Shown here in pieces: positions 5,939-22,954 of a stretch of 64,000 nt of DNA. Each line of letters begins with the position of its first letter. Position 1 is the stretch's first letter. Source of the DNA: Acidobacteriota bacterium (GTDB lineage Bacteria > Acidobacteriota > Thermoanaerobaculia > Multivoradales > Multivoraceae). The position numbers and the translations under genes are program-made. Under the pieces are notes generated by a model. That model was not told where the DNA came from. It made no database searches and saw only the letters and a program-made list of their open reading frames with translations. The DNA is taken from NCBI GenBank assembly GCA_028875725.1, contig JAPPCR010000006.1:272134-336133 (forward strand), written 5' to 3'.

Positions 5939-7183
5939 CTACGGCGGCGTCAGCGGGGTCAGGGCGAAGGCGCGGCTGGCGATGTCGATGGCCTCCTCGA
6001 TGTCGTCCGGCTGGTGCGCCAGCGACAGGAACCAGTTGAGCCGGGGGTGGAAGATGGCGCCGAGCCGGGCCGCTTGGCTGCCGAAGATGCGGGCGCGCTT
6101 GGCCTTCACGTCGCCGCGAAAGAGAAAGGTGGGCATGGTCGGTGGCCCGGACATGACGACGTCCTCGTGGCCATGCGCCCGTCCGGCGGCGACGATGCCC
6201 TCCCTGAGCCGCGTGCCCATTCGCACCATGTGCTCGAAGACGTTGTCCCGCCCGTAGATCTCGAGCGTCTTCATGCCGGCGCGGAAGGCGACCGCGGAGA
6301 ACATGTAGGTCGCGGTGAAGGCGATCCGTTCCGCGCCCTCCCGCAGTTCGTTGCGGCCGAGTACGGCCGAGACGGAGTAGCCGTTCGCCAGGGGTTTGCC
6401 CAGGCAGATGAGATCAGGCTCGAGGCCCATGCCGAGGTGGGAGCCCTTCGGGTGCATCCGGAAACCGGCGCGGACGTCGTCCAGGGCCACGCGGCACCCG
6501 GTCCGTTCGCGCGCGGCGTGAATCGCCGCGACGATTTCCGGGCTCGCCTCCCGCGTCTCCTGGCTCGGGTTCTGGTCGAGGGGGCTGATCATGATGCCGG
6601 CGAGGCGGTCTCCGAGTTCCTCCACCGCGCGCTCCAGGGCCCCGGCGTCGTTCCAGGGGACGCGCGCGACGTGCCGCTGCTCGCCGGTGGCCGGGGTTTC
6701 CGGGTGGAGCGCGATCTCGGTCCCGAAGCCGTGGTAGGAGTCCCGGAACAGGATGACGACCGGCCGGTGGGTCGAGGACCGCATGGTGCGTAGCGCGAGG
6801 TTCGTGCTGTCCGATCCGTTCTTGGTGAAGATCATCCAGTCGAAACCCGCCACCGCCTCGAGCAGTTGCTCGGCGTAGATCGGCATCGCCTCCGGGAAGA
6901 AGGCGCTGAGGTCCATCTCGCCGGCCTGCTCGGCTGCCGCGGCGTCGACCTCGGGGTGGCAGTAGCCCAGGATGTTCGGCCCGTTCCCGCAGTTGAAGTC
7001 CAGGTAGGAGCGGCCGTCCGCGTCCTCGATCCGGCACCCCTTCGCCGAGCGGATGAACCCCGGTAGCACGTCCCGACCGGCGAAGCGCGCGGACCGGGTC
7101 AGGTAGATGCCGCCGCGCGGGATGACTGTGTCCGTTCTCTCCCAGAGTTCCCGGCCCCGCGGACCGTCGACGGAGTCGTTCAT
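5939..7183 (-). CDS. class III (PLP-dependent) aminotransferase
   Basis: It shows aminotransferase class-III features (glutamate-1-semialdehyde aminomutase-like). The start was chosen at the internal ATG, which has an AAGGAG RBS. The upstream part of the long ORF is a low-complexity extension. Confidence 0.85.
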   Translation of the reverse strand: MNDSVDGPRGRELWERTDTVIPRGGIYLTRSARFAGRDVLPGFIRSAKGCRIEDADGRSYLDFNCGNGPNILGYCHPEVDAAAAEQAGEMDLSAFFPEAMPIYAEQLLEAVAGFDWMIFTKNGSDSTNLALRTMRSSTHRPVVILFRDSYHGFGTEIALHPETPATGEQRHVARVPWNDAGALERAVEELGDRLAGIMISPLDQNPSQETREASPEIVAAIHAARERTGCRVALDDVRAGFRMHPKGSHLGMGLEPDLICLGKPLANGYSVSAVLGRNELREGAERIAFTATYMFSAVAFRAGMKTLEIYGRDNVFEHMVRMGTRLREGIVAAGRAHGHEDVVMSGPPTMPTFLFRGDVKAKRARIFGSQAARLGAIFHPRLNWFLSLAHQPDDIEEAIDIASRAFALTPLTPP

Positions 7184-18147: not shown

Positions 18148-18516
18148 ATGTTGGGATACTGCACGATCGGCGTGAACGACATGGACCGGGCAACGGCCTT
18201 CTACGATGCGCTGCTCGGCGAGCTGGGCGCGAAGACGATGTTCGACATGGGCCGGATCAAGGGCTACGGCGTCGCGCCCGGACAGCCGATGCTCGCCATC
18301 TGCATTCCCTACAACGAGGAGCCGCAGGTACCCGGAAACGGGAACATGGTGGCGATCGCCGCGGCTTCGCAGGAGCAGGTCAACCAGCTCCATGCCAGGG
18401 CGCTCGAGCTGGGCGGCACCGACGAGGGCGCGCCCGGAACGCGGGTGGCCACGTTCTATGGCGGCTATGTGCGGGACCTGGACGGCAACAAGCTCTGCTT
18501 CTTCAAGATGGGCTGA
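18148..18516 (+). CDS. VOC (glyoxalase/bleomycin resistance/dioxygenase) family protein
   Basis: Its length and sequence pattern are those of a VOC domain. An AAGGGAG RBS lies upstream. Confidence 0.8.
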   Translation: MLGYCTIGVNDMDRATAFYDALLGELGAKTMFDMGRIKGYGVAPGQPMLAICIPYNEEPQVPGNGNMVAIAAASQEQVNQLHARALELGGTDEGAPGTRVATFYGGYVRDLDGNKLCFFKMG

Positions 18517-18588
18517 AGCTCGGACGGCCGTCGGGCGATTCGGCTGGCAGCGCGTCGCCCCCGGGAGTTGTTCGATGTCGCGCAGTTG

Positions 18589-18610
18589 ATTTTTAGTAGG
18601 AACTAAAAAT
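18589..18610. promoter_or_regulatory. AT-rich perfect palindrome ATTTTTAGT-AGGA-ACTAAAAAT; candidate operator or terminator
   Basis: It has perfect 9-bp inverted arms with a 4-nt spacer, AT-rich in a ~70% GC genome. It lies 14 bp upstream of the TonB-dependent receptor start. Confidence 0.35.
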
Positions 18611-18623
18611 AAGATTCGCGACC

Positions 18624-20933
18624 ATGGAAAGGCTGCGGATGTCCGAGCTTGTGCCGAGCGGCGCTGCCGTCGTTGCGGCCGGAGCGCTGGCGCTTCTGGC
18701 AACCGGGCAGGTGATGGCGACGGTGTGTCCGACCGACAGCGGAGTTCACGGCACGGTGAAGTCGCTCCAGGGCCAGCCGGTAGCCGGCGCCGCGGTGACC
18801 TTGACCTCGTCGTCCGCTACGGCGGTGACGTCGGTGGACGGTCGGTTCTGCCTCCACCCGGTGACCGCGGGCGAACACCGCCTGGTGGTCTACGCGGAGG
18901 GTTACGGCCTCGCAGAGCAGGGATTCCTGATCGAGGACCGGGAACCGGTTCAGCTCGACGTGCAGCTTCGCCCTTCCTTCGGCGCGGAGGTCGTGATCAG
19001 CGCGACGCGGACGGAGAAGCGGTTGGCGGACGTGCCGCTCCACATGCAGACGGTGCCGCGCTCCCGGATCGAGAGCGCGGCCGCCCGGACCCTGGCCGAC
19101 GCGGTCGAGTGGACGCGCGGCGTGCGCGTGGAGTCGACTTGCCAGACCTGCAACGCCTCGCAGGTCCGGCTGCTGGGGCTCGAGGGACCGTATTCGCAGC
19201 TCCTGGTCGACGGACAGCCGGCGCTGTCTTCGCTGGCGATGGTCTACGGCATCGAGCAGTTGCCGGCGCGCCTGATCGACAGTATCGAGGTGGTCAAGGG
19301 AGGTGGCTCTCCGGCCTATGGCGCGGGCGCCGTCGCGGGCGTGATCAACCTGATTCCACACCATCCGGACCACACCCACGTCGAGGCGGACGCCCGTTCG
19401 GAGAGGATGGGCGGCGCCGCCGGTACCGCCGAGACGCCGTCGTACAGCCTGGTCGCGGACTGGATTCCGAGCGAAGGGACTCCGAGTTCAGGGCGTGCCG
19501 CGACGTTTCATGGCCAGGTCGACCGGGTGGCGCCGGTCGACGTGGACGGCGACGGCTTCAGCGAGGTGTCGATCCGCGATCTCGACGCCGCCGGTGCGCG
19601 CTACCACGAGTTCTTCCTGGACGGCTCGGCGCGGCTCGCGGCCGAGGTCAGCTACATGTCCGAGTTCCGTCGCGGCGGCGACCGGTTTCACCTGCCGCCC
19701 GAGCAGGCCGAGGTCGCCGAGCAGTTGGACTCGAACCGGAGCGGCGGCGCTGTCTCCTGGCTGCACACCGTCTCGCCGCTTTGGGACTGGCGCGCTACGG
19801 TGTCGCATGCCGCCACCGGTCGGGCCAGCTACTACGGCGCGGGCGGTGATCCCGGCGCGTTCGGCGCGACCCGCAATCCGCTGTGGGTGTTCGACTCCCA
19901 CGTCAACCGCGGCGGCGACCGGGGAACCGTCAGCTTCGGCGTCCAGGCCGGGCACGACCTGATCGACGACCGGCAACCGGCCTATGGGCGTCTGATCCGG
20001 GAGACCTACCGGAGTGTCTCGGGCTTCGTTCAGGACGACCGCCGGATCGGCGATCACGTGACCTTGCTGTACGGGCTGCGGGCGGACCGGCACAGCGCGG
20101 TCGACGGGTCGATCGTCTCGCCGCGGGCGGCACTGATGTGGACGCCCCGAAGCGACCTGACCCTGCGCGTCTCCCACAGCGCCGGCTTCCTTCCGCCCGC
20201 GGTGTTCGACGAGGAGCTTCACATCGCTCTCCTGGGCGGCAGGGCGATGGTCGTGCGCGACGACACCGGCCTGCGCGAGGAGACGTCGGCTTCGCGCATG
20301 GCGAGCCTGGAGTGGCGGCCGACCGTGGGCCGGCGCATGTCGATGGCGTTCGACGCGACCGTCTACGACACCAGGATCGACGACCTGTTTCACCGCCTGG
20401 AGGCCGACGATCCAGCGACCCCGGAACTCGAGTTCCTGCGCGCGAACTTCGGCCGCGCGCGGGTGCGGGGCGTAGAGGTCGGCTGGGGGCTTCGTCGCGG
20501 CGGCCTGACAGTCGACGCGGGCTACGCCTGGCAGAGGGCGGAGTTGGGCGAAGCGGAGCCGGACTTCGGCAGCATGACGATGTTCCGGACCCCCGAGGAG
20601 TACGGCACGGCGAGCGTCCAGTGGCCGTTGCCACGCGAACTCACGCTCTTCGCCGGGCTCCGGTACACCGGTTCGATGCTGGCGCCTCACTACGCGGGCT
20701 ACATCGCCGAGGACCGGCTGGAAGTCACCGCGAGCTTCCTGACCTGGGACCTCGGCCTGTCCCGCCGGTTCGCACTCGGCGGCGAGCGCCGGCTCACGGC
20801 CACCGTTGCGCTCAAGAACCTGACCGACGAGTACCAGCGCGACCTGGACCGCGGGCCGTTCAGGGATGCGGGTTACGTCTACGGACCCCGGTTCCCGCGG
20901 AGCCTCGTCGTCGGCCTGAAGGCGGTTCTGTAG
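18624..20933 (+). CDS. TonB-dependent receptor with N-terminal carboxypeptidase-regulatory-like domain
   Basis: It has a signal peptide, a CarbopepD_reg-like segment, a plug domain and a C-terminal beta-barrel ending in an aromatic residue. Confidence 0.9.
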   Translation: MERLRMSELVPSGAAVVAAGALALLATGQVMATVCPTDSGVHGTVKSLQGQPVAGAAVTLTSSSATAVTSVDGRFCLHPVTAGEHRLVVYAEGYGLAEQGFLIEDREPVQLDVQLRPSFGAEVVISATRTEKRLADVPLHMQTVPRSRIESAAARTLADAVEWTRGVRVESTCQTCNASQVRLLGLEGPYSQLLVDGQPALSSLAMVYGIEQLPARLIDSIEVVKGGGSPAYGAGAVAGVINLIPHHPDHTHVEADARSERMGGAAGTAETPSYSLVADWIPSEGTPSSGRAATFHGQVDRVAPVDVDGDGFSEVSIRDLDAAGARYHEFFLDGSARLAAEVSYMSEFRRGGDRFHLPPEQAEVAEQLDSNRSGGAVSWLHTVSPLWDWRATVSHAATGRASYYGAGGDPGAFGATRNPLWVFDSHVNRGGDRGTVSFGVQAGHDLIDDRQPAYGRLIRETYRSVSGFVQDDRRIGDHVTLLYGLRADRHSAVDGSIVSPRAALMWTPRSDLTLRVSHSAGFLPPAVFDEELHIALLGGRAMVVRDDTGLREETSASRMASLEWRPTVGRRMSMAFDATVYDTRIDDLFHRLEADDPATPELEFLRANFGRARVRGVEVGWGLRRGGLTVDAGYAWQRAELGEAEPDFGSMTMFRTPEEYGTASVQWPLPRELTLFAGLRYTGSMLAPHYAGYIAEDRLEVTASFLTWDLGLSRRFALGGERRLTATVALKNLTDEYQRDLDRGPFRDAGYVYGPRFPRSLVVGLKAVL

Positions 20934-21499
20934 TGCAACGGACCGACGTTCTCCGACTGGCGCTTGTCGCAACGCTGGGTGTCGCATCGGCGACGCCGGC
21001 GGCGTCTGCCCTGGAGGGTGGAGAGACTCCGGCGAGCGTCGAGTCGTCGGCGCCAGGGGAACTGCGCGGAGTTCGGCTTGCCGACCTCTGGTCGGACCTG
21101 GAGGCGCGCGACATCGACGGCCGGGCATGGACAGGTGCCGACTTCGAGGATCGTGTCGTCCTGGTCGAGTTCTGGGGCACGTGGTGCGCTCCCTGCCTCG
21201 CCGACTTTCCGCACATCGAGCGTGCCCGGGCGGCATACGCCGACCGGGGACTCGTCATTCTGTCCGTCTCGCTGGACCGCTCCTCGCGCCGCAGGCTGCG
21301 GAGTTTCGGCCGGCGGCAGGGCATCACCTGGCCCGTCCTCTTCGACGGGCTCGGCGCGGCCGGCGCCGTAGCCAGGCGCTTCCAGGTGGAGTATCCGCCG
21401 CGCTCCCTGCTGTTCGACCGGGAGGGTCGGCTGGTCGCGCTCGATCCTCGTGGAGAGATGCTCGGCGCGGCGCTGAGGGTCCTTTTCGCCGCGGAGTGA
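20933..21499 (+). CDS. TlpA-like thiol-disulfide oxidoreductase (thioredoxin/redoxin fold), secreted
   Basis: It carries the WCAPC active-site motif. A signal peptide follows a GTG start that overlaps the receptor stop (taGTG). The exact start is uncertain. Confidence 0.75.
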   Translation: MQRTDVLRLALVATLGVASATPAASALEGGETPASVESSAPGELRGVRLADLWSDLEARDIDGRAWTGADFEDRVVLVEFWGTWCAPCLADFPHIERARAAYADRGLVILSVSLDRSSRRRLRSFGRRQGITWPVLFDGLGAAGAVARRFQVEYPPRSLLFDREGRLVALDPRGEMLGAALRVLFAAE

Positions 21500-21517: not shown

Positions 21518-22954
21518 GTGTCCGGGCCAGCCGCCAAACCCGTCGCAGGCTCCGTGTCTGGCCTCGGCCGCGCGTCGATCCTGCCGTGCAGCCTCGTGGC
21601 CGCCCTCCTGGTGGGCGCGGCCGTGCCGGTCACACCTGGCTGGATCGTTCCCGGCGAGGGTGAATCCGCAGCGCGCGACCCGGTCGAGTCCCTGGCGCAG
21701 GCCCGTGCGGCGGTGGAGCGCGCGCCTTCGGAGTTCGGGCCTGTCCTGGCGCTGGCCCGGGCTTTGCTGACGCTTGGCCGCGCGGACGATGCCCTGGCGG
21801 CGTTCTCCCGGGCGCGAGAGCTTGAGCCGGATGGTCTGGCAGCCGCCGGTAGCGGGGCGGCCCGCGACGTGGCGTCGGCCTACCTGGCGCCAGCGCTGCT
21901 GCTTCGCGACCTGGACCGCACTGGCGAAGCGATCCGGCTGCTGGAGCAGGGTGCGGCCCGGGGGCTTGGCAGCGCAGACATCTACGAGCAACTGGCCCTC
22001 CTGCGGCTGGCCGACGGTCAGGCGGGGGAGGCGCTGGCGGCCGCCTCGGCGGCCGCGGCCGAGAACGTCACGAGTCCCGGCCTCGACCTCGCCCGCGGGC
22101 TGGCGCTGGCGCGCGATCCGAGCCGCCGCGTGGAGGCCCTGGGCTACCTGCAACGCGCTCTCGACGTTGGTGTAGGCGAGGCGGTCGTCGTGCGTCTGGA
22201 AGCGGCGGACCTTCTCGTGGCCGAAGCACGCTACCCGGAAGCGCTCGAACACCTGCGCGTCGCCGCGGAACTGGCGCCGGAGGAACCGGAAGTGGTCTAC
22301 CGGCTCGGGCGGACGCTTGCCGCCGCCGGAGACCGGCAAGCCGCCCAAGCGGCGCTCGACCGCTACCGGTCGCTCGAGGAGGCCGGGGAACGTGCGGCGG
22401 AGAGTGAGCGTCTGGCCTCCACGGGGACGGTGTCGGCCCTGTCGGAGGCGCAACGGTTGGCGGCGGCTGGCGACCTGGAAACCGCCCTTGAACGCCTGGC
22501 GGGCGTGCCGGGACGCCTGGACGATCCGCGTGCCGCGGACGTTCACTCTCTGCGGGCCAAGGTGCTGTTCTCCCTGGGTCGGGCCGCCGATGCCGCGGCC
22601 AGCGCTCGTGAGGCGCGCCGACTTGAACCGAACCGGGTCGAGCACCACTACCTGGAGGGGATGTTCCTGCACACGAGTGGGCGTGCCGAGGGCGCCGCGT
22701 CCGCGCTTCAACGCGCCCTGGCGCTCGATCCCGATCTCGGCGAGGCCCACGCCCTTCTCGGCATGATCGCCGCGGAGGCCGGCCTACACGCCGAGGCCGC
22801 CGAGCGGATGGAGAGGGCGCTCGACCTCGGGCTCGACGACAACCCGCCGCTCCGTTTCAATTATGCCCGAGTGCTCGAGGCTCTGGGGCGCAGCGAAGAG
22901 GCGAGCGCGCAGATGGAGGTGTACGAGCGCTTGCGAGCAGACGGGCCGCCGTAG
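21518..22954 (+). CDS. tetratricopeptide repeat (TPR) protein
   Basis: It has multiple Ala/Leu-rich 34-residue TPR-like repeats and an N-terminal hydrophobic segment. Confidence 0.8.
   Translation: MSGPAAKPVAGSVSGLGRASILPCSLVAALLVGAAVPVTPGWIVPGEGESAARDPVESLAQARAAVERAPSEFGPVLALARALLTLGRADDALAAFSRARELEPDGLAAAGSGAARDVASAYLAPALLLRDLDRTGEAIRLLEQGAARGLGSADIYEQLALLRLADGQAGEALAAASAAAAENVTSPGLDLARGLALARDPSRRVEALGYLQRALDVGVGEAVVVRLEAADLLVAEARYPEALEHLRVAAELAPEEPEVVYRLGRTLAAAGDRQAAQAALDRYRSLEEAGERAAESERLASTGTVSALSEAQRLAAAGDLETALERLAGVPGRLDDPRAADVHSLRAKVLFSLGRAADAAASAREARRLEPNRVEHHYLEGMFLHTSGRAEGAASALQRALALDPDLGEAHALLGMIAAEAGLHAEAAERMERALDLGLDDNPPLRFNYARVLEALGRSEEASAQMEVYERLRADGPP

Follow-up and report, generated by a model that had tools for sequence, protein, structure and literature searches.

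Metal-dependent repressors of the DtxR/IdeR and MntR type bind AT-rich inverted repeats of about 19 to 22 bp, as at C. diphtheriae tox, B. subtilis mntH and mntA, and E. coli mntH. Metal-loaded dimers occupy these operators, which overlap core elements in the promoters of metal-uptake genes, and the covering of an uptake gene's promoter by a metal repressor is a textbook principle. The E. coli MntR box has a 9-4-9 layout, which is also that of the palindrome described here.

A closely related arrangement has been described in S. maltophilia Sm18, where MntR controls a module made up of mntH, mntP and the bicistronic locus orf2357-orf2358, which encodes a TonB-dependent receptor of the CQNC type (CQNC-TBDR) together with a thioredoxin-fold protein of the periplasm (pTFP) (PMC13217887, 2026). 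The MntR box of this operon, whose pTFP carries a CAPC motif, is an inverted repeat of 25 bp and lies between the -35 and -10 elements, and the operon is induced upon combined Mn and Fe limitation (PMC13217887). Synteny of this gene pair was reported only in Lysobacterales, Sphingomonadales and Opitutales, and the authors suggested that the thioredoxin-fold protein reduces the disulfide of the CQNC motif in the receptor plug (PMC13217887).

The locus that we compared with these systems lies in a 64-kb stretch of acidobacterial DNA, referred to as a whole as the window. Its features are as follows.

18586 to 18591, + strand: putative -35 hexamer TTGATT, assigned by column conservation in an alignment of 28 promoters; it abuts the left arm of the palindrome.
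18589 to 18610, no strand assigned: candidate operator, the 22-bp perfect palindrome ATTTTTAGT-AGGA-ACTAAAAAT, conserved at the same promoter position in 27 orthologous loci (L001-L027).
18610 to 18615, + strand: putative -10 hexamer TAAGAT, spaced 18 nt from the -35, with its first base doubling as the last of the palindrome.
18624 to 20933, + strand: TonB-dependent receptor (TBDR) of 769 aa, assigned by Pfam CarboxypepD_reg (N-terminal), Plug and beta-barrel domains and by its orthologues.
20933 to 21499, + strand: secreted periplasmic thioredoxin-fold protein of 188 aa, TlpA/ResA-like, with the motif WCAPC; NCBIfam ResA and TlpA are its best matches, below cut-off.
21518 to 22954, + strand: TPR-repeat protein gene, 19 nt after the thioredoxin gene; a TPR gene also adjoins the module in L007 and L012.

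The palindrome consists of two 9-bp arms, ATTTTTAGT (18589-18597) and ACTAAAAAT (18602-18610), around the 4-bp spacer AGGA (18598-18601), and its conserved core is TTTAGT-N4-ACTAAA (18592-18607). Eighteen of its 22 bases are A or T, in a window with a mean G+C content of about 0.69. The sequence and a repeat search both agree with the original prediction of an AT-rich palindrome with perfect 9-bp arms ahead of a TBDR gene. The interval of about 70 bp then given from the stop codon of the upstream Glyoxalase/VOC open reading frame (18148-18516) also holds (72 nt), whereas the interval to the receptor ATG at 18624 is 13 nt rather than 14 bp. The repeat search extended the dyad to arms of 21 nt with 81% complementarity (18577-18597 and 18602-18622); we rejected these longer arms as a functional unit, the outer part of the extension showing no conservation in orthologues.

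When up to three mismatches were allowed, TTTTAGT-N4-ACTAAAA occurred once in the 64 kb, compared to 0.03 occurrences expected from shuffled sequence. The further copies that the original prediction had proposed to look for are thus not present elsewhere in the window, but a matching box family was found at other metal-uptake genes in related lineages. Promoters in GC-rich genomes are often AT-rich, and one could suppose that the palindrome is a functionless promoter spacer or an UP-like tract that is symmetric by chance. However, this is scarcely credible given the rarity of such palindromes and given that the arms are fixed, with a free center, among orthologues down to 73% protein identity and persist as TTTTGA-N4-TCAAAA down to about 50%.

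We examined conservation at 35 loci with genes related to the receptor, using the sequence upstream of them. The closest relatives (73-94% identity) come from MAGs labelled Thermoanaerobaculia, Holophagales or 'Candidatus Multivorans' (Acidobacteriota). All 27 loci in this range carry the box TTT[C/A/T]G-N6-C[G/T/A]AAA at the matching promoter position, with L011, L014 and L017 counted through a one-mismatch match to the pattern, and the consensus of these orthologues is TTGACT-TTTCGT-N4-ACGAAA-AA-TAnGAT. Across 28 promoters conservation covers the arms and both flanking blocks, TTGAC and TAnnnT, while the 4-bp spacer varies. TTTNG-N6-CNAAA occurs 32 times in 710 kb (the window and L001-L038), and each match in the Multivorans-group loci sits at a TBDR promoter, one per locus in L001-L027. 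In the more distant orthologues (about 50% identity, L029-L035) TTTTGA-N4-TCAAAA is found instead. The original prediction had named as evidence against it a motif that occurs only once and is not conserved in orthologous intergenic regions; the window does hold a single copy, but conservation in those regions is clear.

Both half-sites are altered in the window and in L027, being TTTAGT and ACTAAA as compared to TTTCGT and ACGAAA, and the affinity of the regulator for the altered sites could differ. In three loci with tandem receptors the box precedes the first TBDR copy (L007 at 3509, L012 at 3517 and L016 at 3347), about 4.5 kb upstream of the copy matched in our search. The order there is box, TBDR, redoxin (in some), TPR protein and second TBDR; the second copy directly follows the TPR gene, and the box is found at the first copy only.

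Although a strict consensus promoter scan of the window did not call the -35/-10 pair, conservation in the alignment of 28 promoters allowed us to infer the receptor promoter. The consensus reads (G/T)TTGAC(T) - TTTCGT - nnnG - ACGAAA - AA - TA(A/T/G)GAT - TCGC. The -35 element is TTGACT or TTGACA in most orthologues, and downstream of the box the most conserved columns are T1, A2 and T6 of the -10 element, for which TATGAT, TAGGAT, TATAGT and TATAAT are variants. We infer that the box fills the 18-nt spacer of a sigma-70-type promoter between the -35 and -10 elements, where repressors classically sit.

Receptor translation starts at ATG, or at GTG in some orthologues, and this codon keeps a constant distance of 7-8 nt from the -10 element (8 nt in the window), with no Shine-Dalgarno sequence between the two in the alignment of close orthologues. 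This short, constant distance without a Shine-Dalgarno sequence suggests that the receptor mRNA is probably leaderless or nearly so. The same TATGAT-N8-ATG layout recurs at MntR-like genes, among them those of L054 and L047.

Two further elements were noted near the promoter. An inverted repeat flanks the start codon (18617-18623 and 18631-18637), reading CGCGACC...GGCTGCG in the window, a perfect CGCGGCC-ATGGAAG-GGCCGCG in L001 and CGCCG-..ATGGAA-CGGCG in L003-L009, with a conserved loop (A/G)TGGAA. The repeat looked compensatory in two subclades, but RNAalifold returned no consensus structure over 23 promoters and we rejected it as an RNA structure; if the mRNA is leaderless, its 5' arm would not be transcribed. 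Upstream, a conserved TTC(G) block at 18569-18575 (TGTTCGA in the window, GTTTCGG in many orthologues) lies 21 bp, or two helical turns, from the left half-site. This block resembles a third TTTCG half-site and might provide auxiliary binding or act as an UP-like element.

A palindrome in this location might instead act as a hairpin, either as a weak terminator or stabilizer for the VOC gene or as a 5' structure of the receptor mRNA. The RNA fold of the region (-12 kcal/mol, z = -3.9 compared to shuffles) favors such a role, as does the A-T to C-G exchange between TTTAGT/ACTAAA and TTTCGT/ACGAAA, which would keep the pair. However, the pair is broken in intermediate loci, which have TTTCGT/ACTAAA (L001, L002, L024 and L025) or TTTAGT/ACGAAA (L008), and arm position 6 is non-complementary in many orthologues, for example TTTCGA...ACGAAA. 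This is the half-site drift expected of a protein-binding site and not of a maintained stem. The A/T-rich stem is followed by AAGATTCG with no T-tract and no predicted terminator, in agreement with the original view that a typical intrinsic terminator is unlikely. Moreover, the box stays with the receptor where the upstream gene differs (L014, L017, L007 and L012), and it is therefore an element of the receptor promoter and not of the VOC gene. Its position between conserved -35 and -10 elements would place it outside the transcript of this promoter. The region has no Rfam family, the sole match being a chance snoRNA (E = 0.64) inside a coding region, and we consider a hairpin very improbable. 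Cis-regulatory RNAs such as the yybP-ykoY Mn riboswitch or the cobalamin riboswitch were also considered and rejected, there being no Rfam covariance-model match.

The palindrome is thus very probably a protein operator. We compared it with the consensus boxes of known regulators, and none of them fits: those of Fur, Zur and FNR, the Irr ICE, and the boxes of LexA from Xanthomonas, of DtxR, and of MntR from E. coli and from B. subtilis. The nearby regulator that the original prediction had suggested seeking by comparative genomics was not encountered: tblastn detected no DtxR-family gene in the 64-kb window or in L001-L035, and the window and orthologous loci contain no Fur homologue.

Two receptor homologues annotated as fusions with DtxR-type domains led us to three loci outside this group, L036, L037 and L038. 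In L036, from soil, TTTTGACTGGTCAAAT is followed by a DtxR-family gene, a TBDR gene and a redoxin gene. The best NCBIfam match of the L036 regulator is MntR, and both L036-type and L037-type regulators have higher scores with the models and structures of MntR than with those of DtxR.

As an independent test, we assembled 80 metagenome loci (475 kb) selected by the L036 regulator protein alone. The receptor-derived box pattern occurred 43 times in these loci, compared to 1.7 occurrences expected from shuffles (about 25-fold enrichment), and almost always as TTTTGA-N4-TCAAAA. Upstream sequence of 130 bp or more was available for the regulator gene in 71 loci, and in 31 of these a box lay no more than 130 bp upstream of that gene. 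The genes adjoining the boxes encode Nramp/MntH (449 bits), Porin_O_P-like and MetA-type outer-membrane proteins and DUF411, or form a cluster of multicopper-oxidase-like, ZIP and cupredoxin genes. L090 has the regulator followed by TTTTGAGTAATCAAAA, a TBDR and a redoxin, the last two being 46% and 44% identical to their counterparts in the window. L028 has the order box, multicopper oxidase (MCO), ZIP and TBDR; a regulator gene was not seen in that locus. Hybrid boxes such as TTTTGA-N4-ACGAAA lie near porin genes in L063, L073 and L080.

The MCO cluster, in which a two-domain multicopper-oxidase-like gene is joined by ZIP and small cupredoxin genes, was seen at L048 362-3043, L036 5236-7912 and L028 5143-7397. 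It lies under TTTTGA-N4-TCAAAA, divergent from the MntR-like gene; copper proteins are unusual company for a putative Mn regulon. A conserved AAAGTCAA block about 20 nt from the box was also observed in L054 (approximately 5958-5985) and in L047, L048, L077, L083, L101 and L113. Read on the other strand it is TTGACTTTT, a -35 and T-run junction like that of the Multivorans receptor promoters. This block probably serves the divergent mntH or MCO promoter, with the box covering its -10/+1 region.

A second subfamily of regulators is represented by L037. The L037-type protein has 249 aa, with a DtxR N-terminus and a C-terminal FeoA/SH3-like domain, and heads dtxR-feoB operons in conserved synteny. 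A CGAAA-type box lies just behind the regulator's own TTGACA-17-TAnnnT promoter, as TTTCGTTGCGGCGAAA in L127, TTTCGTCTAGCCGAAA in L130 and TTTTGGCGTGACGAAA in L123, with one-mismatch versions in L037 and L125, and the dtxR-feoB loci have a second copy at the start of feoB. In L135 the genes of the FeoA-domain regulator and of a CQNC-TBDR with 44% identity to that of the window diverge, and the intergenic region that they share contains TTTCACCATGGTGAAA on the regulator side and, 25 nt ahead of the start of the TBDR, TTTCGTCATAGTGAAA.

In the marine loci L037 and L038, what comes after the DtxR-family gene with the FeoA domain is a TBDR to which a remnant of feoB is fused. At L037 8001-8260, and likewise in L038, a fragment of about 65 aa from the N-terminal G domain of FeoB is in frame with the TBDR and is 66% identical to the FeoB of L127. 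The flanking synteny of L037 (LNT ... CoA-transferase, ECH) is that of intact dtxR-feoB loci. By these comparisons the receptor appears to have replaced feoB in the L037 lineage.

In related lineages, then, the box family is found upstream of regulator, mntH, ZIP, porin and feoB genes. Because it sits at DtxR-family genes and metal-uptake genes in independently chosen loci, we consider it likely that a dimeric, metal-dependent DtxR/MntR-family repressor uses the palindrome as its operator on the TBDR-pTFP operon. The nutrient-responsive repressor operator overlapping the receptor promoter that was originally predicted is supported on three counts: the arms are kept and the spacer is free in 27 promoters, the box lies between the -35 and -10 elements, and the box family is enriched at DtxR/MntR-family genes. 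The prediction named neither a regulator family nor a nutrient, and our evidence points to a Mn/Fe sensor of the DtxR/MntR type.

Another possibility is that a regulator of a different family (Fur/Zur/Mur, MarR/AdcR, Rrf2, TetR or others) binds the palindrome and that its likeness to the DtxR-linked boxes is convergent or accidental. TBDRs are classically regulated by Fur, and, as described above, the window and the 27 close loci showed no DtxR-family gene. Regulation of this receptor family is also evolutionarily labile. The TBDR homologues of L133 and L134 (48% identity) have no box, and the coupling of box and receptor is therefore not universal. These receptors have sigma-54-type promoters (TGGCAC-N5-TGCA / TTGC, at approximately 1990-2010 in L133 and 5590-5610 in L134), no thioredoxin gene behind them, and an NtrC-like response regulator and histidine kinase upstream; going by these features, sigma-54/NtrC gives this receptor family another mode of control. 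These homologues (P0113 and P0103) share their contigs with an FeoA-type regulator, and a box had been expected at them; with sigma-54/NtrC in its place, the comparison was uninformative for the box. However, the consensus boxes of Fur, Zur, Irr, FNR, LexA, E. coli MntR and DtxR differ from the region by 3 to 10 mismatches at their best match, and a Fur homologue was absent from all loci examined. In addition, the enrichment described above was obtained in loci chosen by a DtxR-family gene alone, and the box links that gene to this receptor in five independent arrangements (L036, L037, L090, L135 and, by box type only, L028). We therefore regard control by another family as unlikely.

For the DtxR/MntR-type repressor that we favor, the following mechanism can be proposed. 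With ample metal (Mn2+ and/or Fe2+), the repressor dimer in its metal-loaded form would bind the half-sites TTTAGT and ACTAAA, or TTTCGT and ACGAAA in most relatives, and its presence in the -35/-10 spacer would exclude RNA polymerase. Under metal scarcity the apo-protein would leave and the operon would be transcribed, probably as a leaderless mRNA, so that the derepressed receptor could serve metal acquisition across the outer membrane.

Our favored candidate for the regulator is the FeoA-domain subfamily heading dtxR-feoB, because its half-site sequence matches the Multivorans boxes best. Position counts place the Multivorans boxes, TTTTCG-N3-G-A-CGAAAA, closer to the TTTTCG-N3-G-C-CGAAAA set than to the TTTTGA/TCAAAA set; the consensus of the FeoA-type set is TTTTCG-N3-G-N-CGAAAA, and its spacer G is shared with the Multivorans TBDR boxes. 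Among the best 120 matches for either regulator subfamily, no Multivorans homologue was present, the relatives there being from soil and marine sources.

The signals for the metal sensed are ambiguous, and it may be Mn and/or Fe. Mn is suggested by the neighboring MntH and ZIP genes and by the MntR-like sequence scores, Fe by the feoB context and by a Cys at the DtxR Cys102 position of the L037-type protein. In the alignment the L037-type protein also has an Asp at the position of B. subtilis MntR Asp8, and with this Asp and the Cys it bears a mixed signature.

The genes downstream of the box are consistent with a receptor-thioredoxin operon. The GTG of the thioredoxin gene overlaps the TBDR stop codon (TAGTG, 20931-20935) and, as judged from this overlap, it is the second gene of the receptor operon; a redoxin gene follows the TBDR in L036, L039, L040 and L090 as well. 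The TPR gene may be a third member. The plug of the window receptor carries the motif CQTC (CQTCN), which makes it a CQxC-type TBDR. C-Q-x-C-N was found in 113 of 120 homologues (71 CQNCN, 34 CQSCN and 6 CQTCN), with both cysteines and the Gln kept and the third residue variable. Elsewhere in the window, the segment 47001-51000 has a G+C content of 0.60-0.62, compared to approximately 0.69 in the rest, with few high-GC3 open reading frames between 46490 and 49031, and it may be foreign or non-coding.

It could be speculated, tentatively and with some doubt on our part, that FeoA-domain DtxR-like proteins in several phyla recognize a previously undescribed operator, TTTCG-N6-CGAAA, and that in Thermoanaerobaculia they recruited the CQxC-TBDR and thioredoxin as an outer-membrane Fe(II)/Mn(II) arm, which replaced feoB in L037 and is perhaps expressed from a leaderless mRNA. 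If this is true, the TTTCG-N6-CGAAA regulon and its sister TTTTGA-N4-TCAAAA, which belongs to the MntH-linked subfamily, would be the first metal regulons of Acidobacteriota. A targeted literature search found no description of these acidobacterial boxes, and metal regulation in this phylum appears to be uncharacterized. The two box types offer a handle for predicting Mn/Fe regulons in the abundant soil Acidobacteria and in sponge-associated Thermoanaerobaculia. Since repression of this kind is a textbook principle, we regard the finding as useful rather than surprising.

Compared to Fur control of TBDRs, the proposed system is alike in that a metal-loaded repressor would cover the promoter of an outer-membrane uptake gene. 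It differs in that no Fur gene is nearby, in that the associated regulators are of the DtxR family, and in the box itself, which has 9 mismatches in 19 positions to the Fur box, GATAATGATAATCATTATC, and 5 in 14 to the 7-1-7 core TGATAAT-N-ATTATCA. Like the operators of DtxR and MntR, the window box is an AT-rich inverted repeat, about 16-22 bp long, in which the arms are conserved and the center is free, and it overlaps the predicted core promoter. It is nevertheless unlike the boxes of DtxR, E. coli MntR and B. subtilis MntR in sequence, with 9-10 mismatches to them.

The S. maltophilia module differs from the one described here in several respects. It belongs to the Gammaproteobacteria and not to the Acidobacteriota (Thermoanaerobaculia), its box has 25 bp as compared to 16-22 bp with other half-sites in the window, and its plug motif is CQNC instead of CQTC. 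The distance from box to start codon there is 75 bp, whereas in the window the start codon lies 8 nt past the -10 element, and the candidate regulators here have a C-terminal FeoA/SH3-like domain. On the other hand, the two modules have the same two genes, corresponding cysteine motifs (CQTC and WCAPC in the window), a box between the -35 and -10 elements and a regulator, here a candidate, of the DtxR/MntR superfamily; this likeness to V8P27_002357 and V8P27_002358 is one of motifs, gene order and box placement. These comparisons would extend the MntR-type module of CQNC receptor and periplasmic thioredoxin well beyond the taxa previously reported (PMC13217887), and this wider spread supports a role for the module in the response to metal limitation.
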